Assembly (NCBI RefSeq): GCF_964204645.1
Contig: NC_134033.1
Span: 8,750,655-8,814,654 of the forward strand
Direction of reading: 5' to 3'
DNA from: Tubulanus polymorphus
Lineage: Eukaryota > Animalia > Nemertea
DNA: 64,000 nt
Positions 1-22,208 of the stretch are shown piece by piece (position 1 is the stretch's first letter; every line of letters starts with the position of its first letter). A program made the translations under genes and the position numbers. The notes beneath the pieces are model-generated. The model was not told the origin of the DNA. It saw nothing but the letters and a program-made list of their open reading frames with translations, and ran no database searches.

Positions 1-3000
1 AGTTTTATAAAGTCAGAAGAAAAAATGGATTATAATATTCAAACACACTCTGAAGAAATAATTTCAAAAACACAAATAAAAGAGAAGTTAGAAAAAATAT
101 TTAATGAATTTAAACGTCATATTGAAGAAAGATATTTTGAGGGTTCTGGCTTAACATTGAATGAAATTATATATTTAGATTTAAATGTTTATAATACAAA
201 AAGAAATAAAACATCAAAAAGTAATAAAATGTTTAAAAATGATTCAAACTTTATAACAGAAAAAGATATGAAAGCATCAAGTTATATCAAATTACCATTT
301 ATAACAAAAGCAGTAATAAATATTCAAAATGAAGATAATAAATGTTTTCTATGGTCAATTATTAGTTGCTTACATCCAACAGAAGAACATGTTTATAGAA
401 TAACAGATTACCAGAAATATGAAACATTATATAAAATTGATCAATATCCAGTAACTATAAAAATGATTCCTAAAATAGAAAAAGTTAATAATTTAAAAAT
501 AAATGTATTCGAATTAATGCAATTACCAAAGACAAAAGGTGAAAATATTAAAGATTATACATTGGAAGCTTTATATTTAACTGAATATTATGATGATGAA
601 AATGCTATAGATTTGTTATATTACAAAAAAGATGAAAATGAACATTATATGTGGTTAAAACAAATTGATTTATTCTTTAGAACAGAAAGTGATTTTAACA
701 GCCATAGAATTTATCTATGTAGAAAATGTTTATCTAAATTTAGAACTGAGAATACATTATTAAAACATAAAGAATTATGTGATAATAAAGATTTTTGTAA
801 ATTAATAATGCCAACAGAAAAAGATTATAAATTGAAATTTACTAATCATAAATTTAAAAATATTGTTCCATTTGTAATATATGGGGATTTTGAATCATTG
901 AATAAAGAATTAACTGATCAAGATAGAAAAGAAATATATAACAAAAAGCAATTATTAAAATCAATGGATAAAGGAAGTGAATTAAATGAAGACATAATAC
1001 AAGACCCACCAATTATAAATACAATTAAAAAAGTTCATCAAAGAGCTGCTGCTTATGGAATTTATATAAAATCAAATTATCCCGAATTATATGAAAGTCA
1101 ATATATTTCTTTTAGAGGTGAAAATGTAGTTAATGATTTTTGTGATAAAATGATTGAATTAGAAAGTGATTTTGCAAAATTATTGAATACAAATAAAGAA
1201 ATAATTATGACAGAAGAAGATGAAATTGATTTTAATTATGCAACTCATTGTTGTTACTGTGAAAAACGTTTTTATTCATTTGATAAAAAAGTAAGAGACC
1301 ATGATCATTTGAATGGAAAGTTTAGAGGCGCTGCACATGAGAATTGTAATTTACAAGCCAAAAAAGTAAATTTTGTCCCCATTATATTTCACAATTTATC
1401 GGGGTATGATACCCATCTATTTATAAAACAGTTATGCTATAAAATAGAAGAAATTAATAATGAAATAGAAATATTAAATTCAAATAGATTAAAAGATAAC
1501 AAAGTATCAACTTATAAATTTAAAATACTAGCTAAAACATCTGAAAATTATATTTCATTCCAATTTGGGTGTTTAAGATTTATAGATTCATATAGATTTC
1601 TAGCAAGTTCATTAGATAATTTAGCAAAAAGTTTAGTTGATAATGATTTTAAAATAACTCAACATTATTATCAAAATGAACAAGATTTTAAATTATTAAG
1701 ATATAAAGGAGCGATTCCATATTCTTTCTATAAAAATCATAATGATTTTAAAATAACAGAATTATTAAAAGATCAATTTTATGATAAATTAAAAGAGGAG
1801 TATGTGAAAGATGAAGTGTTTAATAGAACATTAAATATTTGGAACCATTTTAAGATGAAAAATCATGGTGAATTAGTTGATTTATATTTAAAATCAGATG
1901 TTATGATATTGGCTGACATATTTGAAAAATTTAGAGAAGTTAATTTGAATCATTTTAATGTTGATCCTTGTTATTGCTACTCTAGTCCTGGTTTAACCTG
2001 GCAATGTGGTTTAAAATATACAAATGTAGAATTAGATTTATTAAAAGAACCAGATATGGTTTTATTATTTGAAAAATCAATTAGAGGTGGAATTAGTGGT
2101 GTTATGGGAGATAGGTATTTTAAAGCAAATGATGAATATAAATTATTATATATTGACGCCAATAATTTATATGGTTGGGCAATGATGCAACCTCAACCAT
2201 ATAAAAATTTTATATTAACAGAAGTTGAAAATGATGATAAAACTGATTGGGAAAGCGCAATTATTAGTTTAAAAGACGAAGCACCAATTGGTTATTTCTT
2301 TGTAGTTGATTTAGAATATCCTGAAAATATAAAGTTTAAAACAAGAAACTTACCTTATTGCCCAGAACATTTAACTGTAGATGATAGTTAATTAAGTGAA
2401 TACCAGAAGAAAATAAAACCGAAAGATCATGTTTTTACAGAAAAATTAATACTTACTCAAAATAATAAATACAATTATATTGTTCATTATAGAATGTTAA
2501 AATTTCATCTAAAGCAAGGAATGAAATTAAAGAAAGTACAAAGATATATTGAATTTAATCAATCGAAGTGGTTAGAAAAATATATAGATTTCAATACTCA
2601 ACAGAGAACAATATCAAAAACAGATTTTGAGAAGGATTTTTTTAAATTGATGAACAATAGTTTTTATGGTAAAACTTGTGAGAATATTCGTAATAGAAAT
2701 GATATTGAATTAGTGAATAATTCTGAAAGATTAAGACATTTACAATCAAGCCCCAGACATTTACAAAATAAAAGATTTGAAGATTATTTAACAGCAGTAA
2801 AATTAAAAAGAACATCTATGAAATTTAATAAACCAATATTTATAGGTTCAACTGTTTTAGAAGTTTCAAAGCTATTGATGTATGAATTCTATTACAATGT
2901 TTTACAACCACTTTTTGGAGAAAAACATATAGAAATATTATATTTTGATTCTGTAACAGCTGACACCCCAATATTATTAAAATGTAATAATAAAATATTG

Positions 3001-4469
3001 GTAAGAAGAATTTCAGAAATAATTCCTAATCAAAATAAATCTTATATTTTGTATGGTGAAAAAGAATTAATACAAATAAATGGATTAATGGATGTTTGGA
3101 CAAGAAATGGATGGAAAAAATTAAATAATATTATTAGACATAAAACAAATAAGAAAATCTATAGAGTTAGAACTAAATTAGGATTTGTAGATGTTACAGA
3201 AGATCATAGTTTAATTAAACAAAATGGTGATGAAATAAAACCAACTGATATAAAAATTGGAGATGAATTATTACATAAAAGATTTTACCCAAGAATGAAT
3301 CATATGTCATTTGATGAAATAATTGATAATATTTATAATATAGAACCCGAAACATTAGAAGAAAAAGAATATTTTATCAAAGGATTTTTCATGGGTGATG
3401 GTTCAGCAGGTGTGTATAAATATGTTTGGGGTAATAAATATTGTTGGTATTTATGCAATCAAGACTTAAAATTATTAGAAAGAATTAAGAAATTTTGCGA
3501 AAAAGTTTATTCACATAAAACATTTAGAATCATGGACCATATGAAATCATCCGCGGTTTATAGAATACTTGTAAATAATCCTAAAGATTTTGCTTTAAAA
3601 TATAATGATGAATTCTATATTCATGCAATAGTGAAAAGTAATACTTCGACAAAAGAAAAGATAGTTCCAGATTATGTATTAAATGCAAAAAATAATTTAA
3701 GAAAATGGTTCTTCATTGGATTCTATGCAGCAGATGGTTCAAAAAGTTTCCAAAACCGCAAAACAATATCCTTTGCTCAAAAAGGAAAAGTTGCTATATC
3801 AGGATTAAATATATTATGTAATTCATTAGGTTTTAATATGAATATTGGATTGATTAAATCTAAACCAAATTGCTTTAATCTAAGCCATGTAGAAAATGAG
3901 TTAACTGAAGAAGTTAAAGATTTATTTGAAATATATAACCCAACTGACTATGTTTATGATTTATCAACAGATGATGGAACATTCAATTCTGGGTTCCCAT
4001 TAATCCAAAAAATACTGACAGTTACATACTAAAAATCAAGACAAATGACATAACAAAAGACTTAAAAACATTAAAACATCATTTTGATTTTAGCAATTAT
4101 CCTAAAGATCATGAACTATTTAGCAATGATAATAAAAAGATTCCTGGTAAATTTAAAGATGAATTAGGAGGTGATGAAATGATTGAATTTGTTGGGATAA
4201 GAAGTAAAATGTATAGTTAAAGAACAAAAGATCATGAAGCTAAAAAGTTAAAAGGAATAACAAAACATGTGGTTGATAAACATATAGAATTTCAAGATTA
4301 TATAAAGTGTTTATATAAATCAATTGTAATGAAACACAAAATGAATTGTTTAAGATCAGAAGATCATGAGATGTACATTAATGAAGTTGAAAAAACTAGT
4401 TTAAATCCATTTGATGATAAAAGGTATATTTTAGATGATGGTATAAAAACATTACCTTATGGCCATTAA
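1..4469 (+). pseudogene. polB: Protein-primed family B DNA polymerase (pPolB) with HNH/EndoVII-like insert and an intein; disrupted
   Basis: Motifs: exonuclease YGDFES, FHNLSGYD, IDSYRF; EndoVII-like CxxC...RDHDH...GAAHENCN; polymerase YIDANNLYG, KLMNNSFYGK, YFD[intein]TDS, GKFKDE, SKMYS, KLKG, DDKR. The frame is open from position 1. In-frame TAA at 2389-2391 and 4218-4220; 1-nt frameshift in an A-run at ~4007-4012. Confidence 0.93.
2950..4013 (+). mobile_element. Intein with dodecapeptide (LAGLIDADG) homing endonuclease at the pol-c site of pPolB
   Basis: Block A SVTADTPI directly follows YFD. Block B VDVTEDHSL (~3187-3213). LAGLIDADG-like motifs FIKGFFMGDG (~3373-3402) and FFIGFYAADG (~3709-3738). 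Block F YVYDLST. With one A restored, the C-terminus is ...LIQKN followed by extein TDS (4014-4022). About 355 aa. Confidence 0.93.
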
Positions 4470-5767
4470 AACATAAAATCAATATCATAATACTCGAAAT
4501 CACTATTGGCTTCTTCATTTTCATTTAATTGTTCAGGTTCTTCTTCCATTCCATTTTTCTCATTTAAATAAATTTCTATCTTGTTCCACATTTCATCTCG
4601 CTCTCTTTGTTTCTTTTTGTTTGTTAATTCATCAAATGGAATTATAATATCTAGGTTTAAATAATTTACAATCTTATTTAAAAAGAATTCATAATTTATT
4701 GAATCTGTTATTCTATTTTCCAAATGATACATTAATATTTGTTTAAATATTTTTCTTATATTTTCCATATCTTCTTCTGTTAATTTAGGTTTTTCATAAT
4801 AATCGTTAAATAATAAATATAAATACATTTTCTTTTCTTTTGTGTTAAATGTTGGTGGAATAATTGTTTTTATAATATCTTTTTTAGTTATTTCACCATT
4901 TTTATTTTCTATTATTTTCATTTTTTCAAGCCATTGTATATATTCTGGTGTATGATCTTCTATAGAAAATATTTTAAAAATTTCATCAAGATAATTTAAT
5001 TTTGGATCTATAAGAAAATTTCTAGTTTTTTCTTCATCCCATAAATTCTTTTGCCATCCACAATCAACACAAAATAACACAGTACCTTCTTGTCTTAAGG
5101 TCGCATAACTACATTGTGGACATTTTCGTTTATAATTTATTGGTAATAGATCTTCATTAAGCTCTTGGTATTTTCTTACGTTTTCTTTATGTTTTATTGT
5201 TCTATTATGTAGATTTGAATTACTTGTTGTAATAATCAATTTACAATATTTACAATAATATGTTTTTCTTGTTAATTCATTATATTGTTTTTCTAACTTT
5301 TCAATTGTTTCTTCATTATCTGGTAACGTTTTCTCATATTTTATTTTTTCTAATAAATTATTTTTTCTTTCATTGAATTCAGTTTCAAATTTATTAGAAA
5401 TTTTATCTATATGTGCTTTACGAAATTGATGATTCTCCCAATCTTCTTTATTATCAGGGATGTATTTCATTCGACAAGGCTCGCAGAAATGATTTTTTAT
5501 TTTATCCTTATCATAGAATAAGGAAGGTCTTTTCCAAATAATTTCAGGTTCAACTTCAGCAGAATTATTATCAACATTAGCTGTTGCGCCATTAATTCTA
5601 CACTTCTCTGAATGTTTTTTAACATAATTTCTTGAGAATAATTGATTACATTTTGGGCAGTTTATTTTAGGGGGTTTATAATTTTCATCATGTTTTTTCA
5701 TATGTCGAGCCTTATTACTTTTTCTTAGAAGTTCACCACAAATTTCACATGCTATCTTCTCATCCAT
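4466..5767 (-). CDS. Multi-zinc-finger protein with C-terminal poxvirus/NCLDV VLTF3-like late transcription factor domain
   Basis: N-terminal C2H2-like fingers (CEIC..H..H, CPKC, CEPC, CKYC..H..H), a Zn ribbon CPQC...FCVDCG, and C-terminal INYEFFLNKI..L...IPF...K....DEMWNKI, matching the VLTF3 pattern NY.f.L.K...D.iW.KI as I recall it. Confidence 0.7.
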   Translation of the reverse strand: MDEKIACEICGELLRKSNKARHMKKHDENYKPPKINCPKCNQLFSRNYVKKHSEKCRINGATANVDNNSAEVEPEIIWKRPSLFYDKDKIKNHFCEPCRMKYIPDNKEDWENHQFRKAHIDKISNKFETEFNERKNNLLEKIKYEKTLPDNEETIEKLEKQYNELTRKTYYCKYCKLIITTSNSNLHNRTIKHKENVRKYQELNEDLLPINYKRKCPQCSYATLRQEGTVLFCVDCGWQKNLWDEEKTRNFLIDPKLNYLDEIFKIFSIEDHTPEYIQWLEKMKIIENKNGEITKKDIIKTIIPPTFNTKEKKMYLYLLFNDYYEKPKLTEEDMENIRKIFKQILMYHLENRITDSINYEFFLNKIVNYLNLDIIIPFDELTNKKKQRERDEMWNKIEIYLNEKNGMEEEPEQLNENEEANSDFEYYDIDFMF

Positions 5768-5835
5768 TTATTTAGGAAAAATTTTATTAAAATTAATTTT
5801 TAGTGATGAGCGGTAATTTTTTTATGTCATAAATA

Positions 5836-6594
5836 ATGGTAGAATTAAAAGAATACAGAATATTTGTTGATTCTAGAAAACTTACAAATTATAAATCTCA
5901 TAATTTATTAGTACAATTAGATAGAGAATTTAAGAATTGCGTTGATTTGAAATTAGTAAATATAAGTTTATGTAATTCTTTTTATAATATATCGGATAAA
6001 ACTTTCGAACATAGAGGTTTTGCAATTCATATGAAAAATAAAAATAAATGGTTTTATCTAATGTTAAAACCAGGATTATATAATTTAGAAACATTAGCGC
6101 AAGAAATTAATAAAAGAGCTCGTTTAAAACTTGGAAGTGAATATAAATTTTCAATTAGATTTATAAAAAGTGATAGTTCTGATAAAATTAAAATAAAGTT
6201 AGATGATGAAAGCAAACATGCATTTATGGTAAGGAAACCTTTAGCTAAACTGTTAGGAATTAAACCACAAATTGTTACAGGAAACGTAGATGATAATTCA
6301 AATATAATACCTTTTACACACTTTTATATTTATTGCAATTTAATCGATCCTACAAAAACATTTGAAGCAACTAAAGATACAACATGTAATTCTGGTTTAC
6401 TAAACATTTTACCATTGAAGAATGTTAAACAATTTGGAACGCAAATAAATTATAATTTAACAGAATGTGATTTTAAACCTTGCATTCCTCATTTTAATAA
6501 TTTTAGATTAGAAATAAGAAATCATAATGGATACTTAATTGATTTAAATAACTTTCCTGTGATATATGAATTAGTTATAAGATGTAAAGAGTAA
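5836..6594 (+). CDS. Minor capsid (penton-like, single jelly roll) protein
   Basis: C-terminal pattern YIYCNLI...LLNILP...FKP...FRLEIRNHNGYLIDLNNFPVIYELVIR is typical of Polinton/PLV minor capsid proteins; viral context. Confidence 0.7.
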   Translation: MVELKEYRIFVDSRKLTNYKSHNLLVQLDREFKNCVDLKLVNISLCNSFYNISDKTFEHRGFAIHMKNKNKWFYLMLKPGLYNLETLAQEINKRARLKLGSEYKFSIRFIKSDSSDKIKIKLDDESKHAFMVRKPLAKLLGIKPQIVTGNVDDNSNIIPFTHFYIYCNLIDPTKTFEATKDTTCNSGLLNILPLKNVKQFGTQINYNLTECDFKPCIPHFNNFRLEIRNHNGYLIDLNNFPVIYELVIRCKE

Positions 6595-6610
6595 TTTTTT
6601 CATTATATAA

Positions 6611-6970
6611 ATGAATATAACTGTTGGACCGAGTATATGTTTTGGATTTGATTTTAAACGTGAGAAAGAAATAAAATTTAATATTAATGATGTAATAACA
6701 CATATCAAAAATATTACATTTTCTAATGAAACAACATTTGAGTATGAAACAACAATTGATAAAGAAACTTTAAATGTAGAAAAGATTACTAATTTAATTA
6801 GAGAATCTTTAAGATTTTATGAATTAGATGAAGATTTTATCATCGATGATATTAAAAAAATAATAATTGAAATATATGATAATCATAAAACTAGTAATGA
6901 AATAAATGTTGAATTAATCATAAATAAGTTAACTAAATATTTTGATGATAGTAATTTTTTTGATAAATAA
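6611..6970 (+). CDS. Hypothetical acidic viral protein
   Basis: Intact 119-aa ORF starting at the element-wide TAAATG motif. Confidence 0.6.
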   Translation: MNITVGPSICFGFDFKREKEIKFNINDVITHIKNITFSNETTFEYETTIDKETLNVEKITNLIRESLRFYELDEDFIIDDIKKIIIEIYDNHKTSNEINVELIINKLTKYFDDSNFFDK

Positions 6971-7192
6971 ATGAGTGATAATAAGTGGATAATAACTGGA
7001 TTATATAATGGCGCATTACTATCAGTTGGAACTGTTGGTTATTCAATGGTATTAAAAAAAGTATTCAAAATGGGAAGTGTTAATGTTGATAGATTTGATA
7101 TAAATGATATTTTGAAATTAACATTAGCAGTTACTTTATCTAATTTAACTATTGATTATTTGGAAAAACAAAAATATATTCCTCCCATATAA
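6971..7192 (+). CDS. Small hydrophobic (membrane) viral protein
   Basis: 73 aa, two hydrophobic segments; TAAATG start fused to the preceding stop codon. Confidence 0.65.
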   Translation: MSDNKWIITGLYNGALLSVGTVGYSMVLKKVFKMGSVNVDRFDINDILKLTLAVTLSNLTIDYLEKQKYIPPI

Positions 7193-7216
7193 ATGCATAA
7201 TTTTTTTGTTAAATAA

Positions 7217-7639
7217 ATGGCTTCTGCAATTATAACTATTATAGGATCAGCAATTGTTAACGCTTTAGCATTTACTGGTGGTGGATATTTATTTAAACAT
7301 ATTGATAAAAATGGATCATTAACAGAACAAAAAAGACATAATTTAGCGTTAGAGAAATATAATAAAGATGCAGAAGAATATAGAGAAAAGAGACAAAACT
7401 ATATGGATTACATCAATAAAGAATTATATGATCAGAAGATTTCACACAGAGATTTTCAATCAGTTGATGATGCAATGAGTTTATATAACGCAGTAACCAA
7501 TAAAGAAAAATTACATCTATACAAACCTAAATTATCAGATTATTATACCCCAAGTAAAGAACAACAGAAATATGAAATAATATGGATTTTAGGTGGAACT
7601 GTTATTGTTATATTTGTTGCTTATAAGTTTACTAATTAG
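7217..7639 (+). CDS. Viral membrane protein (hydrophobic N-terminus, coiled coil, C-terminal TM)
   Basis: MASAIITIIGSAIVNALAFTGGG, charged helical middle, IIWILGGTVIVIFVAY; TAAATG start. Confidence 0.7.
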   Translation: MASAIITIIGSAIVNALAFTGGGYLFKHIDKNGSLTEQKRHNLALEKYNKDAEEYREKRQNYMDYINKELYDQKISHRDFQSVDDAMSLYNAVTNKEKLHLYKPKLSDYYTPSKEQQKYEIIWILGGTVIVIFVAYKFTN

Positions 7640-7658
7640 TAATTTTTTTGTTAAATAA

Positions 7659-8093
7659 ATGGAAGATAAAGTTGATAGTATTGATATTATTCCTCATGAT
7701 ATAAATAAAACTAAATTAAAAACATATTTAGAAAAACAAATATTAGAATTTGAAAGTGACTTAAAGATAAAAAAGAAAAAATATTTAAAAAGTAAAATTA
7801 TATATTATCTTATTATTAGTGGTTCGGTTACAATTAGTTCTGTAATAACATTTCTAGCAATATTTAGTCCATTAACACCTTTAGCTATATCAATTGGTGT
7901 ATTAGGATTGAGTTCAAGTGTTTTAACTGGTATAAGTTCAAAATTAAATATAAAAAGTAATAAAGAAAAAATCAAAACTAATATAAAAGAAATTAATAAA
8001 TTAAAGAACACACTAGATTATATAATAAGTTTAAATGGTCATATAACAGTTGAAGAACAAGATAAATTATTAAAAGAATTAATAAATTATTAA
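7659..8093 (+). CDS. Two-TM hairpin membrane protein flanked by coiled coils
   Basis: Hydrophobic stretch IIYYLIISGSVTISSVITFLAIF...LAISIGVLGLSSSVLTGI; TAAATG start. Confidence 0.65.
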   Translation: MEDKVDSIDIIPHDINKTKLKTYLEKQILEFESDLKIKKKKYLKSKIIYYLIISGSVTISSVITFLAIFSPLTPLAISIGVLGLSSSVLTGISSKLNIKSNKEKIKTNIKEINKLKNTLDYIISLNGHITVEEQDKLLKELINY

Positions 8094-8109
8094 TTTTTTA
8101 ATTATATAA

Positions 8110-9444
8110 ATGGCAGATAGTTTTCCAAAAGCTTTCCAATATAATAAATCAATTAAATATAATATTCCGGCAATAGATTTTAAGAAAAATATTACATATA
8201 AAAATATAGTTTTAAATTCATTAACTAATTTAGAAATTTATGTTAATGAATCACAGTTTTTTATTTCTATAATGGAAAATATATTTAATACATATGAAGT
8301 TACTTTTACTCGAGATGAATATCATATATATAAAGTAAAATCTAATATGAAATATTGGCAGAATCAATTAAATTTTGCTGTTTATTGTGCAACAACAGGA
8401 TGTGGAATAAGTTGGAATGATCATTTAAATAACTTAGATAAAAATTTGAAGTATTCTGATTTAAAATTAATTCACACAATATTTAGATTTCACACATATT
8501 TTCAAATCAGAATAATATTAAATGAATTAGAATGTCCTTTACCCGGGTCTAAATATTTTAAAGAATTGGATAATAATATTAATATATCCAAGTTTTATAA
8601 AACATGTAATGAATTTAATATAAATATTAATTCCGATTTCAGAGCGCATGGTAAATTACAAGGTGTTGGTGAACAGTATGAAATAAAAAGAATTGATTAT
8701 ATGCATAGAATTGGAGCTTATCATAATTATAAAATTGATAATAATAATGGTTGGGTTAATTTCATTTTAGAAAATGGTGAAGGTTTTACAAAATCAGGTA
8801 TACAAAGAATAAATCAATCTATTAGAATTTATTTGATATGTATTCTAGGCGCCCAAGTTGAAACAAGATCCCCAATAATTGGAAATGATAACACTTCATT
8901 CGATGCGCAGAAACAGTTTAAAGTTTTATTTGAAGATTCCATACATGATGATAAAAATAGATCGATTCCAGAAAACATTATAAGATATCAAAATTATTTA
9001 GATAAATCTCATGTAAGACTAAATTATTGTATAGGCCCTAATCTATTAATTATTTCTAATGATTTAGTATTGAAGATGGGAAACATAATTGGTTATAATA
9101 ATCTAATTAAAACTGCAACAATAAATAATTCATTTGGGTTAAATGATATAAATAAAAAGATTATTACTGCTCCAAAATCAATGGAAGGTGAACAAAATAA
9201 AAAACACATTCAATCAACAGAAACTAAAACTAAGAATATTAAATTGGTTAATGATTCCAAAATAAAAGATTACAATACATCAGAAAATGTTGCCGTACGG
9301 CACCCACATGGTGATAATAGAACTGATATTATTCAACATGATATAATTAAAACTAATGATGATAATAAATCCCATGAAAATACTAAATTAGCTATAACTT
9401 GTATAGGAATTGTAATCGGAGGAATATTATATTTTAAATTTTAA
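8110..9444 (+). CDS. Uncharacterised viral protein with C-terminal TM anchor
   Basis: Intact 444-aa ORF, WQNQLNFAVYCATTGCG block, C-terminal LAITCIGIVIGGILYF; TAAATG start. Confidence 0.7.
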   Translation: MADSFPKAFQYNKSIKYNIPAIDFKKNITYKNIVLNSLTNLEIYVNESQFFISIMENIFNTYEVTFTRDEYHIYKVKSNMKYWQNQLNFAVYCATTGCGISWNDHLNNLDKNLKYSDLKLIHTIFRFHTYFQIRIILNELECPLPGSKYFKELDNNINISKFYKTCNEFNININSDFRAHGKLQGVGEQYEIKRIDYMHRIGAYHNYKIDNNNGWVNFILENGEGFTKSGIQRINQSIRIYLICILGAQVETRSPIIGNDNTSFDAQKQFKVLFEDSIHDDKNRSIPENIIRYQNYLDKSHVRLNYCIGPNLLIISNDLVLKMGNIIGYNNLIKTATINNSFGLNDINKKIITAPKSMEGEQNKKHIQSTETKTKNIKLVNDSKIKDYNTSENVAVRHPHGDNRTDIIQHDIIKTNDDNKSHENTKLAITCIGIVIGGILYFKF

Positions 9445-9460
9445 TTTTTTTATTATGTAA

Positions 9461-10918
9461 ATGGATGTAGAAGGTGGAGAAGATTATGAAATGGGAGAAA
9501 TGGGAAATGATAATGAAGGATATATTGATGATGATTATAATGATGCAGAAACTAATATTGATAATAATGATGAATCAGCATATAATTCTAATTTAGCAGA
9601 TAGTGGTTCTAAAGGTCAATCAACAGATGAATTTGATAGAAGAACTAGATCGAGAATAAATCCTGAAAATGAAAATCCAGATTTAGTAAAACAAAATTTA
9701 GAATATAATGAATATATTTATAATTTCAAACCTATATTTGAAAAATCTGGATATAATATCAATGCTAGAGGCGCCAGACTTTTAGTACAAGAATTAAAAT
9801 CTTTAGATGGTGAATATTATTAACATTTGAAAGATGATTATTATATTGATATCTCTTATAAAAAACAAAACAAAATATTAGCAGAATCAACTTTGCTTAA
9901 GTTAGACCTATCTAGAATTAAAAGAATAAAAAATAGTAATGAACCAGAAGATGTAACACAAGAAGAAATTATTAAAAATGAAAGAGTATTTAAACAAAGA
10001 ATTAATGAATTATTTGAAACAATCGATAATAATTTAGAACCAGAAACAAGTTCTGAACAGAATATAACTTCCAAAACTAGTAAACTTAAATCAAATAAAG
10101 TTCCAATTGAAAAACTTTTACCGAATGGGTTACTTGATGCAACAGATCAAGAATTAGAAGATTTAGATATATTTTCTGATAAAGCAATTAGAGAAATTAT
10201 TAGTATAAGACTTGCATCTGATAAAATTGCACATGATAAAAGTATAAGAGATTTAAAAATTAGAACTTTAGAAGATGAATTATTAAAATCAAGAAAAGAA
10301 ATAGAACAATTGAAATTAGATAGAGATAATAAAGTTATTGAAGAAATTGAATTTAAAAAAAGAAATGCATATTTAGAAAAAGAAATTGATGATTTAGAAT
10401 ATAACATAGAATTACAAAAAGAAGAAATTAAATCATTATTTAAATCATATGATTATAATATTGATAGATTAAAAGATGTTTTTAAAAGATATCTAATAAA
10501 ACCAGATTCTAGAATATCATTAAAAGATAGAATAAAATTATTATTTAAGTTTGAAGGAATAACAATTCTTTCAATTCTAACAGCTGTAACTATGTTATTT
10601 ACAACAATTGGTTTAGCAATATCAAATGCTTTGAAATCTACTCCTACTCCAAATAAACCGGATAAACCTCCAGGCAATAATTCTATACAAGATAAAGTTA
10701 AAGAAGGTTTAAAGAAATTAGCAAAATATTTATGGGAACTATCAAAGAAATCTGCTGCAGCATTGCCAGGAGTTATTGCCTCAATTGTTGGTTTTGTTTT
10801 AAAATCTGCAGGAAACATTATTAACTTTGCTGCTGAACATATTATTTTATTTTTAATTACAGTTGTAAGTGCTATTATTTTTGGTTTAGTAAACATGATA
10901 TCAAAAAATATCAAGTAA
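9461..10918 (+). pseudogene. Acidic/coiled-coil protein with C-terminal hydrophobic helices, split by one stop
   Basis: ORFs 9461-9823 and 9827-10918 are in the same frame, separated by TAA at 9821-9823; copy 3 reads TGG (YYWHLK) at the equivalent position. Confidence 0.75.
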
Positions 10919-10958
10919 CCATGATGAAAAATAAATAATTAATTTTTTTGTTAAATAA

Positions 10959-12204
10959 ATGAGTGGGAGTTATATAAGTCCTTCTAAGATTTCTAGAATA
11001 TCTAACGCTATTAAAGCAGAAAGATCACATCATATAATTACTCATAACCCTTCAAATATTAATCCCGATGAAACTTTATACGTTAGAATCCCTCGATTAA
11101 CACAAAATACTTTTTACGTTCCAAATAGTATTTATTTATCTGCCGATATAAAAGTATCTGGTAATAATAATAATTATGTCGTTGATAATGTTGGAAGATA
11201 TTTGATTAAAAAGTTAACAATAAAGATTGGTCCAGAAACAGTTTTCTCATTAGATGATTATAATTTATTTATGCATTATAAAGATTTATGGTTAACAAAA
11301 GAAAATAGAAATAATATGATATTTCAAGGCATCCAATCAGAAAACCAAAATAAATTAAGATCAGAAGCTAATAGCGCAATATTAACAAATGATGTAGAAA
11401 TTGATAAAAAGTATATATGGAAGCAAATATAAAATTCCATTAGACTTTGAATTGATAAATAATAATGCGCCTTTATATAAATACGCAATTCAAGAAGATA
11501 TTATATTCGAGATAACATTTGCTCCTGTAAATGAAATTGTATTATCTAGCGTTAATAAAGATATGAGTTATAAATTATCGAATATATGTTTAGAATATGA
11601 TACAGTAACTGATGAAAATATTGCTAGAACAATTCAAACTCAATACAATCAAGGATTTTCATTATTATATGATTATATTGATAAATTTAAAACTGTAACT
11701 ATTAATGCAAATGATGAAATAATAAATGAGAATATTAACTTCCCAAGAAGATCTATTAAAGGTATATTAATATTTTTTACTATTGGAACATATACTAATG
11801 GTGCAATAAATGTTGACAATTATTATAATCCTGAAATAACAAAAGTAGAAATAACTATCGAAGGTATAGCGAATAAAATATTTTGTCAAGGAATGAGAAT
11901 GATAGATCAATGGGTAGAAATTAGAAAACATTTTATGAATGAAAAAATAAAATCATTTGAAAATTGTAACATTAATCAAATTGATTATTATACCGGTAAT
12001 AAATATGCATTATGGTTAGATTTTAGAACAACTGAAGATAATTCATTACATGGTTCTGGAAAAAAACTACAAAATACAAAAGATGGAATACAATTATTCA
12101 TGACAAAGAAAAAGGGAATCAAAAATTTTCAAATGCACATTTATATTATATCTGACGCGCAATTAAATATTATAAATTCACAATTAGATAGTATTCAATA
12201 TTAG
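10959..12204 (+). pseudogene. Major capsid protein (double jelly roll), frameshifted near 11400
   Basis: Two overlapping ORFs (10959-11432, 11401-12204) join to ~415 aa with a beta-strand-rich pattern (NPSNINPDETLYVRIP...IKKLTIKIG...YKIPLDF...ALWLDFR); size and position next to integrase/ATPase fit a Polinton MCP. Confidence 0.75.
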
Positions 12205-12234
12205 AAATATAAAGTTAAAATTAAGGATATATAA

Positions 12235-13362
12235 ATGAGTGGTAAAAAAACTACTAATACTAAAGAACAATATTTAAGAAATTTATATTACAACCCTGAG
12301 AGTTCGGTTGCTTATTCTTCTACTAAAAATATATGGCGTAAAGTAAAACAAGATAAATTAGATAAGATAATCTCACAAAATTTAGTTAAATATAAAGATA
12401 TAAATGAATTTATGTTAGAACAACCAACATATACAACACATAAAAAAATTGTTAGAAAATATAAAACTCGTAAAACTATGGTAAGTTATGTAGATCAACA
12501 GTGGCAAGGAGATTTAATTGATATGAAAAATGTTAAGAAAAATAATGATGATTATTGGTGGTTATTGAATATAATTGATATTTTTAGTCGTTATGTATGG
12601 AGTTTCCCACTTTATAGAAAAGATGCTGCACAAACATCACATGTTTTAAGAAAATTTCTTTCGGATGATAAACTAAAACCAGAAAAAATACAATTTGATG
12701 ATGGAAAAGAGTTTGATAATTCACTTGTTCGTGAACTCTTAGATAATCATAATATTAAATATTTTTCAACAAAATCAGATAAAAAAGCAGCAGTTGTTGA
12801 ACGATTTAATAGAACATTAAGAACAAGAATGTGGAAATATTTTACAGCAAATAATACTTTTAAATGGATTGATGTTTTACCAAAATTGATAGAAGGATAT
12901 AATAATTCTTATCATTCTTCTATTGGAATGAAACCTATTGATGCTAGAAAACCCGAAAATGCTGAAATTGTTTGGAATAATTTATACGAAGCATTTCTTG
13001 TTGATGATTTTGGTGAACCTAAATTTAAAGTTGGTCAAAATGTTAGAATTTCTAAGTATAAAAAGATATTTGATAAAGGATACGATCGAAATTTTACTAG
13101 AGAAATATATAAAATAAAAAAGGTAATAACAACAAAACCATATGTCTATAAATTAGAAGATTTAGATGGTGAAGAAGTTGATGGCTACTTTTATGAAGAA
13201 GAATTAAGTTTAACTACTGAAAATCTAGAACAAGAATATAAAATTGAAAAAGTATTAAAAACAAAAACTGTTAAAAGAAAAAAATATTCTTTAGTAAAAT
13301 GGGTTGGATGGCCAGATAAATTCAATGAATGGATATTATCAAGTAAAATTAAAAATATATAA
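12235..13362 (+). CDS. int: Retroviral-type (rve) DDE integrase with C-terminal chromodomain
   Basis: WQGDL..IDIFSRY, QFDDGKEF, KAAVVERFNRT, YNNSYHSSIGMKP; chromodomain YKIEKVL...VKWVGWPDKFNEWI. Confidence 0.95.
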   Translation: MSGKKTTNTKEQYLRNLYYNPESSVAYSSTKNIWRKVKQDKLDKIISQNLVKYKDINEFMLEQPTYTTHKKIVRKYKTRKTMVSYVDQQWQGDLIDMKNVKKNNDDYWWLLNIIDIFSRYVWSFPLYRKDAAQTSHVLRKFLSDDKLKPEKIQFDDGKEFDNSLVRELLDNHNIKYFSTKSDKKAAVVERFNRTLRTRMWKYFTANNTFKWIDVLPKLIEGYNNSYHSSIGMKPIDARKPENAEIVWNNLYEAFLVDDFGEPKFKVGQNVRISKYKKIFDKGYDRNFTREIYKIKKVITTKPYVYKLEDLDGEEVDGYFYEEELSLTTENLEQEYKIEKVLKTKTVKRKKYSLVKWVGWPDKFNEWILSSKIKNI

Positions 13363-13971
13363 ATGAATAAGGAATTATTCATATTTGAGCCTCATAATAT
13401 GTTAATTTCTGGTGTAACAAATTGTGGAAAAACTTATTTTATATTACATTTATTAGAAACTGTTTATGAAAACTATTTTGATAATATAGTATTATTTTGT
13501 CCAACATATGAATTTAATCAAACTTATGATAAAAATATTACTAGGAATAATAAATTTATTATATTAGATCCTAAAACAGTAAAAGAAAATTTAGATAATT
13601 GTATAAAAATAGCAATTGATATTTATAAAGGATCAAATACATTATTTATCATAGATGATTGTGCTAATATACATGATTCAAAAGTTAGAGAAAGTGAGTT
13701 ATGTTATTTAGCTTTTTCTGGCAGACATTTTGGGATAACAACTTGGGTTTTAAATCAAAAATATAATTCAATTGGTAAAGATTTTAGAGAAAATATTAGA
13801 TTTCTAGTTTTATTCTACAATAAAGATAGAAAATCGATGAAAAATGCACTTAAGGAAAATGATATTATTCCACATGATTTACATAATGAATATATGGATA
13901 AGTTGAAAAATATTAAAAAATCAAAATTACTATTTAGATTACAACACCCATTTAAATATGAATTTATTTAA
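13363..13971 (+). CDS. A32/FtsK-like DNA packaging ATPase
   Basis: Walker A GVTNCGKT, Walker B LFIIDD, GRH..I....Q and R.N motifs. Confidence 0.93.
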   Translation: MNKELFIFEPHNMLISGVTNCGKTYFILHLLETVYENYFDNIVLFCPTYEFNQTYDKNITRNNKFIILDPKTVKENLDNCIKIAIDIYKGSNTLFIIDDCANIHDSKVRESELCYLAFSGRHFGITTWVLNQKYNSIGKDFRENIRFLVLFYNKDRKSMKNALKENDIIPHDLHNEYMDKLKNIKKSKLLFRLQHPFKYEFI

Positions 13972-13974
13972 ATT

Positions 13975-14225
13975 CAATTAGTTTGTTAATCTAGTTGAAT
14001 TCTAGTTATTGGTAGTTGTAACAAAAATCAAATAGATTTAACAATATTTTAACTAGCTTGTTAATCTAGTTTAATTCTAGTTACATTCTAATTGAATTCT
14101 AGTTGTTAGTAGTTGAAACAAAAATCAACTAGATTTAACAAGAAATAAACAAAAACACTAATATTTCAACTAGCTTGTTAATCTAGTTGAATTCTAGTTA
14201 CATTCTAGTTAAATTCTAGTTGCAA
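13975..14225. repeat. Intergenic array of CTAGTT/GAATTC-rich short direct and inverted repeats
   Basis: Repeated AATCTAGTTGAATTCTAGTT / ATTCTAGTT units with inverted AACTAGATTTAAC; shorter versions at ~16547-16735 and ~20685-20745. Confidence 0.85.
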
Positions 14226-14255
14226 CATCACACAATTAATTTTTTTGTTATATAA

Positions 14256-14861
14256 ATGGTAGGTGAAAAGTAAATAAAATCTAAAAATGGTGATGTTCCA
14301 ATTGAAAAAACTTTAGATGATTTAGGAATAACAGAAACAAAATTAATTCCAGATGATGGTGCTTTAAATAATGTTACAACAAATAATAATTATGAATATT
14401 ATCTTTATTGTAAACATCAATTAGAAATATTAATAGCATCTGGAAAATGTAAAAATTTTGTTAGTAAAAATTTAACTTATAATGAATTAGACACAATGAA
14501 ATCAGATGAAATTGTTAGATTATTTAAGATTTATGAAGCCGCGAGAACAGCTAGAATTAATGACGCGATATCAGAAAATGTAGTAAAAGGTTATAGTAAA
14601 TTATGTAGTTATATACTACCAATTGAAGATGAAAATAGATTATATTCTGATTTAAAAAATGATTATTTAGTTATGACTGAATTAAATAAATGGATTGGAT
14701 ATTTATCATTTCAATTAGGTGGATTTATGACATTATTATCAACTGGAGTTATAACATTTTCAAATATTGAAAGTAAAAATATTTCTATAATAAATGAGCG
14801 AGGTGAAAGAAGTGAAGGAATTAATTGTGAAGAAAAAACCGAGAACTCAGAAACAAATTGA
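14256..14861 (+). pseudogene. Hypothetical viral protein with C-terminal hydrophobic segment; early stop
   Basis: TAAATG start at 14256; TAA at 14271-14273 (AAA in copy 2 ORF at 16763); continues in frame into ORF 14496-14861. Confidence 0.7.
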
Positions 14862-15162
14862 ATGGTCTCGACAATTAGGAATTAAATCACAAGAATATAA
14901 AAAAGCTGTAAAAGAAAAAATGAGTAATAAAAATGTTAATAAAAATGGTGAAAATATTGTTATTTCTACTCCTTCTGATAGTAGAATATTTGATAAATAT
15001 TTATATTTTACAGTTGGATTTGTAATTGTATTCATTTTGATTGGGTGTAATTGGTATAAGAAATCAAATAAAATTCATGATATTAGTAATTCTGAACCAA
15101 CTGCTATCAAAAATGAAAGTACTTCTGAAATTCCAAAATTGACAATGAAAAAAATGGATTAA
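14794..15162 (+). CDS. Basic single-TM viral protein
   Basis: TAAATG start, KKKPRTQKQ basic motif, YLYFTVGFVIVFILIGC TM; overlaps the upstream gene by 68 nt. Confidence 0.7.
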   Translation: MSEVKEVKELIVKKKPRTQKQIEWSRQLGIKSQEYKKAVKEKMSNKNVNKNGENIVISTPSDSRIFDKYLYFTVGFVIVFILIGCNWYKKSNKIHDISNSEPTAIKNESTSEIPKLTMKKMD

Positions 15163-15337
15163 TATTTTAGAAAAAAAGCAAAAAAAAATAATTTTTTTTT
15201 AATTAATTGAATATTAATTGAATATTAATTGAATATCTCACTACTTTTGTCTATCTATGAGGAGCAATTAAATTGTCCAGATAAGTCATTTCGGATTCTA
15301 GATATTCATTATTTTTATTAATTTATTTTTTTTAAAT

Positions 15338-15664
15338 TTAATCAACAATTTCTAAATCATGATGACCGTCTTCATTTTTCCCATGATAGATTATTTTAAA
15401 TCCTTCTAAATCTTTTAATTCCTCTGTACTCAATGAAACCCATTTATCAGGTAAAAATACTTTAAATTCTCGCGATGTATTAACATTACAGTATCCTAAA
15501 TTAGCTGATACTTTCTCTCCATATTTAGTTTTTATCTTTTCTAATTTCAATATTTTATGTTCAATTTCTTTTGTAACATCAACTAACTTTTTTATTTCAA
15601 ATTGTTTTTTTGCTGGTTTTATTCTGTTATTTATTGTTGCTAAGAATGCTTTTCTGTCTCCCAT
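15338..15664 (-). CDS. Small terminal protein, possibly OB-fold nucleic-acid binding
   Basis: 108 aa with TKYG.KV...L...KVFLP pattern; ATG lies within the right TIR; degenerate homologue at ~21797-22130. Fold assignment is tentative. Confidence 0.55.
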   Translation of the reverse strand: MGDRKAFLATINNRIKPAKKQFEIKKLVDVTKEIEHKILKLEKIKTKYGEKVSANLGYCNVNTSREFKVFLPDKWVSLSTEELKDLEGFKIIYHGKNEDGHHDLEIVD

Positions 15665-15750
15665 TTATTAGGAAAAAAAAATTACTTGTGGTGATGAGTG
15701 GTGTTTAGTACTCTCGTACTCTGGCCTGAAAACGCCATCTTCCAATTACT
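15658..15750 (-). repeat. Right terminal inverted repeat of Polinton copy 1
   Basis: Reverse complement starts AGTAAT and contains TTTCAGGCCAGAGTACGAGAGTAC and CTCATCACCAC, as does the copy 3 left TIR at 17868. Confidence 0.9.
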
Positions 15751-17768
15751 GGTGAAGAAGTTGATGGGTATTTTTATGAAGAAGAATTAAGTTTAACTAC
15801 TGAAAATCTAGAACAAGAATATAAAATTGAAAAAGTATTAAAAACAAAAACTGTTAATAGAAAAAAATATTCTTTAGTAAAATGGGTTGGACGGCCAGAT
15901 AAATTCAATGAATGGATATTATCAAGTAAAATTAAAAATAGATAAATGAATAAGGAATTATTTATATTTGAGCCTCATAATATGTTAATTTCTGGTGTAA
16001 CAAATTGTGGAAAAGCTTATTTTATATTAAATTTATTAGAAACTATATTTGATAATATAGTATTATTTTGTCCTACATATGAATTTAATCAAACTTATGA
16101 TAGAAATATTACTAGAAATAATAAATTTATTATATTAGATCCTAAAACAGTTAAAGAAAATTTAGATAATTGTATAAAAATAGCAATTGATATTTATAAA
16201 GGATCTGATACATTATTCATCATAGATTATTGTGCAAATTTACATGATTCAAAAGTTAGAGAAAGTGAGTTATGTTATTTAGCTTTCTCTGGGAGACATT
16301 TTGGGATAACAACATGGGTTTTAAATCAAAAATATAATTCAATTGTTAAAGATTTTAGAGAAAACATTAGATTTTTAGTTTTATTCTATAATAAAGATAG
16401 AAAATCGATGAAAAATGCACTTGAGGAAAATGATATTATTCCACATGATTAACATAATGAATATATGGATAAATTGAAAAATAATAAAAGATCAAAATTA
16501 CTATTTCGATTACAACACCCATTTAAATATGAATTTATTTAGATTCAACTAGCTTGTTAGTCTAGTATATTTTTAGTTACATTCTAGTTTAATTCTAGTT
16601 GTTAGTAGTTGAAACAAAAATCAAATAAAATTCAACAAGAAATAAATAAAAACAACAATATTTCAACTTGCTTGTTAATCTAATATATTTTTAGTTACAT
16701 TCTAGTTAAATTCTAGTTGAATTCTAGTTGCAACATCACAACTAATTTTTTTTGTTATATAAATGGGTGGTGAAAAGAAAATAAAATCTAAAAATAGTGA
16801 TGTTCCGATTGGAAAAACTTTGGATGATTTAGGTATAACAGAAACAAAATTAGCGTCAGATGATAATGGTGCTTTAAATGATATTACTACAAATAATAAT
16901 TATCAATATTATCTTTATTGCAAACATCGCTTAGAAATATTAATTGCATCTGGGAAATGTAAAAATTTTATTAGTAAAAATTTAACTTATAATGAATTAG
17001 GTACAATGAAATCAGATGAAATTATTAGATTATTTATGAAACTGCGAGAACAGCTAGAATTAATGATGCGATGTCAGAAAATGCAGTAAAAGGTTATAGT
17101 AAATTATGCAATTATATGCTACCAATTCAAGATGAAAATGAATTATATTCCGATTTAAAAAATGATTACTTAGTTATGACTGAATTAAATAAATGGATTG
17201 GATATTTATCATTTCAATTAGGTGGATTTATGACATTATTATCAACTGGAGTTATAACATTTTCAAATATTGAAAGTAAAAATATTTCTATAATAAATGA
17301 GCTAAGTGCGAGAGGTGAAAGAATTAACTGTGAAGAAAAAACCGAGATCACAGAAACAAACTGACTGGTCTCGGCAATTAGGAATTAGATCACTAGAATA
17401 TAAAAAGCTATAAAAGAAAAAATAAATAATTAAGATGTTAATGAAAATGGTGAAAATGTTGTTATTTCTACTACTTCTAATAATAGAATATTTGATAAAT
17501 ATTTATATTTTACAACTGGTTTGTAATTGTATTCATTTTGATTGGGTGTAGTTGGTATAAGAAATCAGATAAAATTTATGATATTAATAATTCTGAAACT
17601 ACTGCTATTAAAAATGAAAATACTTCTAAAATTCCAAAATTCATAATAAAAAAAATGGATTGATATTTTAGAAAAAACAAAAAAGCAAAAAAAATGATTT
17701 TATTTTTAATTAATTGAATATCTCACTACTTTTGTATATCTACGCGGAGCAATTGAATTGTCCAGATA
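15751..17768 (+). mobile_element. Polinton copy 2 remnant (integrase 3' end, ATPase and two downstream genes, degraded)
   Basis: Colinear with 13168-~15283 of copy 1; ATPase ORF 15946-16452 has mutated Walker motifs and a premature stop; ORFs 16763-17089 and 17071-17364 are frameshifted. Confidence 0.92.
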
Positions 17769-17867
17769 CTTCTCTCCTCAGTGTTGTAATTAAGAAACAA
17801 ATGGTATCAAATATCAAGAGCCCAATGGGTTTTAATGATTTGAATTTAATTTAAGTATTGTACTCAT

Positions 17868-20800: not shown

Positions 20801-22208
20801 AAGTGATTTTACAATTGAAAAAACTTTGGATGGTTTAGGAATAACGGAAACAGAATTAACTTCAGATAATGGTGCTTTAAATGATATTACTAAACGTAAT
20901 AATTTTAAATATCATCTTTATTGCAAACATCAATTGGAAATATTAATTGCATCTGGGAAATGTAAGACTTTTTATTGGTAAAAATTTAACTTATATTGTA
21001 TTAGGTATAATGAAATCAGATCAAATTATTAAATCATTTAAGATTTATGAAACTGCAAGAATAGCTAGAATTAATGACGCGATTTCAGAAAATGTACTAA
21101 AAGGTTATTCTAAACTATTAATGATATGCTCCCAATTGAAGATGAAAATAAATTATATTCTGATTTAAACAATCATTTAGTTATGACTGAATTAAATACA
21201 TGGATTGGGTATTTAATATTTCAATTAGGTGGATTTATGACATTGTCATCAACTGGAGAAATAACATCTTCAATATTGAAAGTAAAAATTTTTCTATAAT
21301 AAATGAGCGAAATGGAAGAAGTGAAAGAATTAACCGTGAAGAAAAAACCGAGATCACTGAAACAAATTGAATGGTCTCGGCAATAAGATTTTAAATCAAA
21401 AGAATTTAATAAAGCTTAAAAAGAAAAAATAGATAATGACAATTTTGATAATAAAGATGAAAGTAATGTTATTTCTACTGCATATAAATTATTTAATAAA
21501 TATTTTAATTATTCAACTGGATTTGTAATTGTTGTTAATAATTCTGAAACTACTACTGTTAAAAACGAAAAAATTACTGAAATATCAAAATTCACTATAA
21601 AGATAATGGATTAAAAGTCTAGAAAAAAAGAAAAATAATAATTTTGTTCTATAATATTTCTGTTTATAATTAATTAAATATCGCACTACTTTTGAGAGAT
21701 AAGTCATTTCGGATTCTTGATATTCAATTTAAAAGAAGAGAATACATTTTAATAATTTTATTTTTATTTTCTAATTTTCTATTATTTTTGAAATATTTAT
21801 TCAACAATTTCTAAATCATGATGACCAACTTCATACTTTTTATGATAAATTATTGTGTAACCTTCTAAATCTTTTCATTTATCTTTATTTAATGAAACCC
21901 ATTTATCAGGTGAAAATATTTTAAATTCTCGTGTTATACTAACATTACAATGACTCAAATTTGCTGATATTCTCTCACCATATCTAGTTTTTATGTTTTC
22001 AGGTTTTAATATTCTATGCTCAATTTCTTTTGTTACATCGACTAATTTTTTTATTTCGTATTGTTTTTTTGCTGGTTTTATTTTTTAATTATTGACGCTA
22101 AGAATACTTTTCTGCCCCCCCCCCTCCCATTTATAAGGAAATAAAAATAAAAGTGGTGATGAGTCGTACTCTCGTACTCTGGCAAGATACCGTCATTTAC
22201 CCATTACT
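17868..22208 (+). mobile_element. Polinton copy 3, internally deleted, both TIRs present
   Basis: ~85-bp TIRs at 17868-17952 and 22124-22208 with AGT...ACT ends. Contains degraded pPolB 5' part (17946-19420), part of the coiled-coil gene, ATPase 3' end and terminal genes. Confidence 0.92.
19421..19680. mobile_element. MITE with (T)ACGGAAGCGTCCTG TIRs (IS3EU-like termini) and internal ~60-bp tandem hairpin repeats
   Basis: ACGGAAGCGTCCTGAGGACAT...ATGTCCCCAGGACGCTTCCGTA; three units containing TTCCGAGT..CAAACTCG. Confidence 0.75.

Follow-up and report, generated by a model that had tools for sequence, protein, structure and literature searches.

The late promoter of vaccinia virus is described as a T-containing core followed after 5-7 bp by TAAAT(G/A), with no 5' UTR (PMC5294985 and PMC4542343, sections available to us). 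Among the EMALEs of Cafeteria, only the type bearing the late motif of CroV was reactivated by CroV (PMC10945749, in part), and for vertebrate Mavericks the accessible text of PMC8097293 offers helper dependence or a virophage-like role as a proposal only, without evidence. Promoters go unmentioned in the portions at hand of four works from the Polinton/Maverick literature (PMC8502044, PMC11131425, PMC11161782 and bioRxiv 2026.06.19.733378). Maverick expression in animals, and the particles that have gone unseen, form an open question on which the present finding bears. Here we describe an element in Tubulanus polymorphus that points to a late-promoter-like initiator throughout an animal-type Polinton branch, which would be new beside known Polintons.

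A defective Polinton in the Tubulanus window

The window, the whole stretch of 64,000 nucleotides that was analysed, holds a defective, integrated Polinton/Maverick of 22-25% GC at positions 1-15750, followed by decayed copies:

1..4467, plus strand: polymerase gene, in pieces (Pfam DNA_pol_B_2, PF03175, E=1e-12, above the cut-off; Endonuclease_7, E=3e-4)
2950..4029, plus strand: intein with LAGLIDADG endonuclease, sited at the polymerase YxD motif
4466..5767, minus strand: zinc-finger protein of 433 aa; start in TAAATG, preceded by T5
5768..5835, both strands: bidirectional promoter-like gap of 68 nt; T-run, 6 nt and TAAAT on each strand
5836..6594, plus strand: minor capsid protein (penton) by predicted fold; start TAAATAATG
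6595..9460, plus strand: five packed ORFs at 6611, 6971, 7217, 7659 and 8110; T-run, 6-7 nt and TAAATG ahead of each
9461..10918, plus strand: conserved gene, interrupted in frame by a stop at 9821-9823; starts in T7-N6-TAAATG
10959..12204, plus strand: double jelly-roll (DJR) major capsid protein, its frame broken near 11400; starts in T7-N6-TAAATG
12235..13362, plus strand: rve integrase with chromodomain (PF00665, E=5e-11); TAAATG without T-run
13363..13971, plus strand: A32-like packaging ATPase, its start abutting the integrase stop; TAAATG without T-run
14256..15162, plus strand: two conserved small genes, at 14256 and 14794; TAAATG at both
15338..15664, minus strand: terminal gene of 108 aa; T-run/TAAATG within the terminal repeat
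15654..15750, minus strand: right terminal inverted repeat, beginning AGTA and ending in an inward-pointing T-run/TAAATG
15751..22208: decayed partial copies, 68-89% identical, one internally deleted with both terminal repeats present

With a polymerase, rve integrase, DJR capsid, penton, A32 ATPase and AG-starting terminal inverted repeats all present, the element is a Polinton/Maverick. The penton was recognised from an AlphaFold model (pLDDT 72) that Foldseek matched to the mavirus minor capsid protein (E=3e-10) and to other pentons. For the major capsid gene, the Pfam Capsid_N match is weak and the assignment by fold was made on a relative, P0001, rather than on the window copy; the P0001 capsid is 79% identical to the C-terminal part of the window capsid, and its predicted fold matches DJR capsids. 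Neither an adenovirus-like cysteine protease, a trait of Polinton/Maverick group 1 (Pfam, 19 ORFs, E 0.01), nor an RNA polymerase was found among the element's ORFs, so transcription by an enzyme of its own was rejected. Viral contigs scanned with the ATPase, a capsid alignment and the integrase gave no relative. We also rejected membership of the virophage family (Lavidaviridae/Virophaviricetes), since virophage capsids rank below NCLDV-type ones in fold searches and Pfam found no maturation protease.

Only 5 codons of the 14256 frame precede its break, and the 14794 frame overlaps the one upstream of it. Because the polymerase and capsid genes are broken, the window copy could not replicate or package alone. 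The terminal repeats of the deleted copy (17868-17952 and 22124-22208) are 95% complementary; its flanks do not match as a target-site duplication, and the left end of the main copy lies beyond the window edge, by about 0.55 kb as judged from a decayed copy. Transposons in the DNA around the element suggest an animal host. The decayed copies retain the motif at 15946, 16763, 17946, 19735 and minus 22130. An 8-nt word also recurs near promoters, at 5803, 15691, 17913 and 22156.

The start-site motif and its distribution

TAAATG stands at 13 of the 14 gene starts in positions 1-15750 of the window, compared with 35 of 405 first ATGs after a stop in frames shorter than 50 aa, the matched null (p=1.5e-12 vs gene starts), and 35 of the 629 other ATGs. 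All 13 starts so listed by a first-pass annotation (6611, 6971, 7217, 7659, 8110, 9461, 10959, 12235, 13363, 14256, 14794, minus 5767 and 15664) do read TAAATG, and 5836 reads TAAATAATG as it had stated. Seven of these starts (6611, 7217, 7659, 8110, 13363, 14256 and 14794) are independent of motif choice because L003 homologues align from residue 1. The annotation had also placed a T-tract upstream of most starts: a run of at least five T lies within -17..-9 at 10/13 TAAATG starts, all but 12235, 13363 and 14794, vs 1/629 other ATGs. The fixed spacing had escaped it: with 6 nt between T-run and TAAAT there are 11 matches, and no other length in the range 2-12 gives more than 6. T5-N6-TAAATG occurs nine times in the element (simulated mean 0.36-0.42, maximum 3-4, in 300 Markov simulations each at orders 1, 3 and 5) and is absent from the flanking DNA (41.7 kb). 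The enrichment over AT-rich background that had been set as a check therefore holds against both matched ATGs and simulations. Within genes TAAATG is not avoided (21 observed vs 21.9 expected), a point against reading it as a late promoter.

Related elements carry the same initiator. They are metagenome contigs without host flanks. TAAATG occupies 46 of 52 starts in 11 such contigs of 20-44% GC (control ATGs 67/1149), 19 of 22 in seven contigs of 31-44% GC (control 20/513) and 5 of 7 in L006 and L007, at 40-44% GC. These clade counts omit the near-duplicates L002, L012, L014, L017 and L022 as well as L019, L024-L039 and L041, which are short, distant or mostly in broken frames, and where 2 starts are TAAATG. 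In a sister group the count is 0/34, TATA sitting 5-12 nt before ATG instead, and it is 0/9 in the three contigs of this group with 29-31% GC. In the midpoint-rooted capsid tree the motif-bearing rows all fall to the same side of one branch (support 83/95, present in 88% of bootstrap trees), which stays under the tool's strict mark. A nearest-relative search with the dNK of L003 was uninformative.

The low GC of the element, and TAA being an in-frame stop, might suggest that the motif reflects AT-rich composition or the calling of ORFs with the first ATG past a stop as their start. The nulls and the comparison across GC, where the motif persists in the richest contigs and is absent from the AT-rich sister contigs, rule this out and leave it a negligible probability.

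A device of translation or RNA processing is very improbable. It would take the form of stop-start reinitiation, of an AATAAA overlapping the next start, or of a trans-splice acceptor with a pyrimidine tract, and it could draw on TAA being the upstream stop at 6971 and 13363, on about half of the starts reading AATAAATG and on AATAAA lying near the stop in 21/48 relative genes. The intergenic gaps of about 0-40 nt in the first-pass annotation recur in 9/10 co-directional pairs tested, the exception being 284 nt before 14256, but the gap is zero in just 2/10, and the motif is also present where no upstream gene ends, in head-to-head pairs, in terminal repeats and 284 nt past a stop. Stop-start coupling was rejected on these grounds, and a trans-splice acceptor on there being no AG within 10 nt of any of the 13 window starts. 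Kozak context was likewise rejected: position -3 holds T in 13/13 window and 46/52 relative starts, vs a purine in 28/34 sister-group starts.

Candidate transcription machinery

The layout of the window starts, as read from DNA, equals that of the vaccinia late promoter. A search pattern derived from the window matches five poxvirus records at the A14 late promoter, these being one orthologous region and hence not independent; other starts in the records are TAAATG in 23/30. The T fraction at -16..-10 is 0.70 in the poxvirus records, 0.81 in the window and 0.64 in the relatives. Poxvirus head-to-head pairs lie 14 nt apart, and those of the relatives 19, 28, 28 and 30 nt apart with TAAATG on both strands. 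Two points tell against the likeness: the late region of the poxviruses shows no clear avoidance of T-runs (T5NT O/E 0.66, z -1.8; T6 0.92), and vaccinia late transcription is not known to respond to T5NT. In our elements coding-strand T5NT and T6 are avoided (O/E 0.16-0.37 and 0-0.25), A6 far less so (0.71-0.93).

We suggest, with a probability of about 70%, that the motif is a signal for the post-replicative machinery of a helper giant virus and that the element has a virophage-like lifestyle; the helper is most likely pox-like. One helper-type late motif stands before nearly all genes of an element without its own RNA polymerase, as such a lifestyle would have it. The intein speaks for the same reading, with relatives in RNA-primed family-B polymerases in 21/23 matches scanned; their clusters name these intein-bearing polymerases just family B, and their origin is presumably viral. 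The first-pass annotation had proposed NCLDV-like transcription of a virophage-like satellite: the motif does fit NCLDV-type post-replicative use better than any rival tested, but the element belongs to the Polintons rather than the virophage family. Clade-wide conservation across GC, compact bidirectional pairs, a motif-free sister group and the poxvirus positive control make the sequence case stronger than it was then.

Under helper control, the integrated copy would stay silent until infection, when the helper's post-replicative factors would bind the T-rich core. The polymerase would start within TAAAT and slip, adding a 5' poly(A) leader with AUG immediately after it, and all genes, polymerase and integrase included, would switch on together, like mavirus. 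The same T-run would probably also terminate the upstream transcript, and an intact copy would replicate and be packaged in the helper's factory. Each of these steps is reasoned from the DNA.

The helper may possibly be another NCLDV, iridovirus-like (Pimascovirales) or asfarvirus-like, that initiates at T-run/TAAA and terminates at oligo-T, though we consider this unlikely; its probability is a share of that given for the helper reading, not an addition to it. Two non-pox giant-virus bins have TAAATG at 17/55 starts, G001 at 10/35 with a T-run in the same place (T fraction 0.63) and G002, whose capsid is iridovirus/marseillevirus-like and nearest Singapore grouper iridovirus, at 7/20. Given this looser motif in non-pox bins, the motif does not tie the helper to one family. 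Oligo-T termination is the mode of ASFV (PMC7163114, excerpt), and iridoviruses are proposed as vertebrate Maverick helpers in the accessible part of PMC8097293. The best match of the intein is in a polymerase nearer to Pol delta than to any poxvirus structure listed. Against such a helper, TAAA floats relative to ATG in the bins (of 55 starts, 17 have it at offset 0, 11 at offset 1 and 14 lack it) but is locked in the window (13/14), relatives (46/52) and poxviruses (23/30), and T5-N6-TAAATG is rare there (13 vs 6 control in 419 kb; 5 vs 5 in 244 kb) vs nine in 15.75 kb here.

Alternatively, the element could be autonomous and served by nuclear host RNA polymerase II through a compact element-specific core promoter or as long polycistronic RNAs, its poxvirus likeness being convergence. 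Several starts read TATAAATG, TATA box included, the recurring 8-nt word might be a binding site for a factor of the host or the element, and the element encodes a zinc-finger protein. Coral polintons also express core genes in heat-stress-sampled colonies (PMC11131425, sections available), so some animal polintons are transcribed without a reported helper. We nevertheless regard this as distinctly improbable, since from a TATA box touching ATG transcription would begin 25-30 nt into the gene (PMC5294985, in part), the head-to-head gaps of the relatives are too short for two promoters plus leaders, and the -3 base departs from that of the sister group. Internal AATAAA is found in 12/13 window ORFs checked, up to 9 each, and is not avoided in window coding strands (62 observed vs 54 expected). 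Its O/E is 0.99 and 0.78 in the relatives and 0.59 and 0.49 in the sister group (z -2.3, -1.4), a modest contrast, and it is absent from 8/52 relative genes vs 25/33 sister-group genes, partly a GC effect.

Late promoters of helper type ahead of all genes would account for silence in healthy tissue and suggest that the host has a large DNA virus yet to be discovered. The difference in motif between this branch and its sister group could serve as a simple screen of whole genomes for helper-dependent vs autonomous lineages. More tentatively, animal Polintons may include true provirophage lineages keyed by promoter to different helpers, this branch to an undescribed pox-like invertebrate virus (T-run/TAAATG) and the sister group to asfarvirus-type machinery, with TATA 5-12 nt before ATG as the ASFV late initiator. 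If so, the helper of any animal Maverick could be read from its start-codon context, and animals would gain an inducible anti-giant-virus element.

Comparison with known systems

With Polintons/Mavericks (Polintoviricetes, 'adintoviruses') the element shares pPolB, rve integrase, A32 ATPase, DJR capsid, penton, terminal inverted repeats, a length of about 16 kb and integration; it differs from animal members in its clade-wide late-promoter-like initiator and in having no cysteine protease by Pfam. Mavirus and the EMALEs of Cafeteria are likewise integrating elements with pPolB and rve integrase, with one motif before nearly all genes and lineage-specific motifs (PMC10945749, in part), but they have a protist host, a known helper in CroV, a TCTA motif and a virophage-type capsid, whereas the capsid here is polinton-type. 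The entomopoxvirus-associated PLVs (Barth et al. 2024, PMC11296320), compared by description only, are Polinton-like and tied to animal poxviruses, one lineage being a divergent Maverick-Polinton; the link there is co-occurrence in occlusion bodies, two elements are without known integrase, and promoter, motif, TAAAT and transcription are not mentioned in that paper.

The yeast linear plasmids pGKL1/2 share Polinton derivation, pPolB, a TAAAN initiator and 5' poly(A) leaders made by slippage (PMC6211774; PMC11161782), but lack a capsid and themselves encode an RNA polymerase and a capping enzyme, whereas our element has capsid genes and no RNA polymerase. The poxvirus late promoter shares the T-rich core, the spacing of about 6 nt, TAAAT(G/A) over the start codon and compact bidirectional pairs; in our element the candidate promoter stands ahead of all genes, that of the polymerase among them, and coding sequence avoids T-runs.

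Identity and state of the element

The element is a Polinton/Maverick: Pfam searches over 19 frames detected a protein-primed family-B polymerase (pPolB), a chromodomain-bearing rve integrase and an A32-like ATPase, and gave a weak match to a capsid. P0001, a capsid relative 79% identical to the C-terminal part of the window capsid, has a predicted double jelly-roll fold, and the predicted fold of the ORF at 5836 resembles pentons. GC content is 22–25% in window 1–15750, and DNA of 31–44% GC adjoins the element and its decayed copies, which reach 22208. The polymerase, capsid, 9461 and 14256 genes are interrupted, and thus the element is defective. Judging from an internally deleted copy, the main copy probably extends ~0.55 kb beyond the left edge of the window.

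Features in the window
2950–4029, intein at the YxD motif of the protein-primed polymerase, carrying a LAGLIDADG endonuclease
ending at 15750, terminal inverted repeat, beginning AGTA
17868–22208, internally deleted copy, both terminal repeats retained
24297–28631, host-side transposon, unclassified, with three large ORFs
38287–41587, host-side transposon, Harbinger-like DDE_Tnp_4 with a Myb-like partner
47735–49642, host-side transposon, Bel/Pao-type DUF1759 ORF

Bel/Pao elements are metazoan, and the flanking DUF1759 and DDE_Tnp_4 transposons point to an animal as the likely host. The ATPase gene is followed at 13972–14240 by a non-coding tract of tandem 11-nt repeats in which the palindrome CTAG is abundant, and other short repeats occupy the corresponding place in relatives L001 and L005. 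A 260-nt MITE-like insert with 35-nt inverted ends lies within a decayed copy (19421–19679). The close relative L003 carries a deoxynucleoside kinase gene (PF01712; L003:10340–10981), also with a T-run and TAAATG at its start; the window copy lacks this gene.

Among the 23 intein relatives scanned, 21 lie in RNA-primed family-B polymerases, putatively giant-virus enzymes though not so named in their records, and two in topoisomerase II. Of the best 150 intein matches, 138 aligned from the intein start, most of these after YGD, and none of the 150 matched the flanking pPolB part. P0126, a short relative (74% identical), continues into a polymerase-like tail. Homing endonuclease inserts in polinton pPolBs have been mentioned previously (PMC11161782).

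A clade-wide start motif

The first-pass annotation had claimed that almost every viral gene here starts in TAAATG, usually after a T-tract, and this was borne out when every listed start was checked: 13 of 14 read TAAATG, with 5836 reading TAAATAATG. Seven starts are fixed independently of the motif, as L003 homologues align from residue 1. TAAATG occurs at 35/629 other ATGs in 1–15750 and at 35/405 in the fairer null of short frames, each taken at the first ATG to follow a stop; a T-run precedes 10/14 gene starts vs 1/405 in that null. T predominates at positions −16 to −10, and the spacer between T-run and TAAAT has its maximum at 6 nt (11 matches, against six or fewer for any other length). 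T5-N6-TAAATG occurs nine times vs ~0.4 in Markov simulations, and not at all in 41.7 kb of flank. The enrichment over an AT-matched background that the annotation had set as a check is present against both matched null and simulations. An 8-nt word, GTGATGAG, lies beside the bidirectional gap and in terminal repeats (5803, 15691, 17913, 22156) and is possibly a factor-binding site.

A search with the capsid alignment returned 39 metagenome loci and two in genome assemblies. Clade counts use 11 non-redundant, metagenome-derived contigs without host flanks (capsids 53–84% identical to P0001), leaving aside near-duplicates (L002, L012, L014, L017, L022) and a further 18 that are short, distant or have broken frames (L019, L024–L039, L041). 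TAAATG stands at 46/52 of their starts vs 67/1149 in the matched null, and at 19/22 vs 20/513 in the seven contigs of 31–44% GC; three of the six misses have TAAAT then A slightly upstream, a variant permitted in poxviruses. Gene order varies among these contigs, so the motif has been retained through rearrangement. Head-to-head starts carry TAAATG on both strands across gaps of 19, 28, 28 and 30 nt; wider pairs span 64 and 72 nt in relatives and 68 nt in the window. In the midpoint-rooted capsid tree, the 13 motif-bearing rows all fall to the same side of one branch (83/95; 88% of bootstrap trees). In the sister group of seven contigs (L015, L016, L018, L020, L021, L023 and L040; three of 29–31% GC), TAAATG occurs at 0/34 starts, and TATA lies 5–12 nt before the ATG at 19/34 vs 56/986 other ATGs. 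The motif is real and clade-wide, and base composition and ORF definition are ruled out as its source by the nulls and GC controls. Polinton capsid fragments (L040, L041; P0009) within bacterial assemblies labelled Cohaesibacter, Amphritea and Bartonella are likely contamination.

We consider it very improbable that TAAATG is a device for translation or processing. Stop-start coupling accounts for 2/10 gaps and for no site in head-to-head pairs or terminal repeats; T, rather than the purine of a Kozak-type context, stands at −3; and none of 13 window starts has an AG, as in a trans-splice acceptor, less than 11 nt away.

Candidate transcription machinery

We favour helper-driven late transcription of the element's genes (probability roughly 0.7). 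A pox-like helper is a tentative attribution, at slightly under even odds, and another NCLDV helper is rather unlikely. The vaccinia late promoter has a T-containing core, 5–7 bp, then TAAAT(G/A) over the start (PMC5294985). Through slippage this promoter element templates 5' poly(A), and salmon gill poxvirus retains it (PMC4542343); in intermediate promoters the spacer is 12 bp long (PMC12917281). Searching IMG/VR contigs with a 17-base window pattern gave 77 matching stretches, most of them scattered chance matches. Five multi-gene loci among them, all at the poxvirus A14 gene, have TAAATG at 6–7 of 8 starts, and at 23/30 without the matched gene, although these are one orthologous region rather than five tests. 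The T fraction at −16 to −10 is 0.70 there, 0.81 in the window and 0.64 in relatives, and the poxvirus head-to-head pairs are 14 nt apart. A pox-only reading is challenged by two giant-virus bins that the scan also yielded, G001 (T-run at the corresponding position, T fraction 0.63) and G002 (iridovirus/marseillevirus-like capsid), which together have TAAATG at 17/55 starts. Their TAAA floats relative to the ATG and they seldom show the full motif; pox geometry is thus the best fit, yet not an exclusive one.

Signals inside genes were compared with expected counts from synonymous-codon shuffles. AATAAA is not avoided in window genes (62 vs 53.9 expected) or AT-rich relatives (126 vs 127.4), slightly avoided in mid-GC relatives (19 vs 24.4) and more strongly in the sister group (8 vs 13.6; 3 vs 6.2), a modest contrast that fits RNA evading nuclear 3' processing. 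The sister-group TATA resembles the ASFV late initiator TA(+1)TA, but the group's slight avoidance of AATAAA and its purine at −3 may instead indicate host polymerase II. Coral polintons, perhaps of another lineage, are transcribed (PMC11131425), which keeps host polymerase II in play for this element, if with low probability. Coding strands of the motif clade strongly avoid T5NT (O/E 0.16–0.37) and T6 (O/E 0–0.25), which is not clear in the sister group, bins or poxvirus region; TAAATG inside genes is not avoided. The T-run often directly follows the upstream stop, and may thus act both as terminator of the preceding transcript and as promoter of the following one; ASFV terminates its transcripts at oligo-T (PMC7163114).

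Comparison with known systems

Our literature search, which covered the main texts of openly available papers, brought up no report of the motif in polintons. Polinton-like viruses occur in entomopoxvirus occlusion bodies, as described in a text that offers no analysis of promoters (PMC11296320), a virophage role has only been proposed for vertebrate Mavericks (PMC8097293), and gene flow has been reported from egoviruses, close poxvirus relatives, to trichomonad polintons (bioRxiv 2024.03.23.586382). In the pGKL plasmids the initiator is TAAAN and the polymerase is plasmid-encoded (PMC6211774), whereas no frame of the element checked in the window could encode a multisubunit RNA polymerase. 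Virophages and their helpers have late motifs in common, and the only EMALE type reactivated was the one with the CroV motif (PMC10945749; bioRxiv 2025.10.09.676808; PMC6401483). As to family, the virophage-like satellite proposed initially fails, the element being a Polinton; as to mode of life, the element likely works as virophages do.
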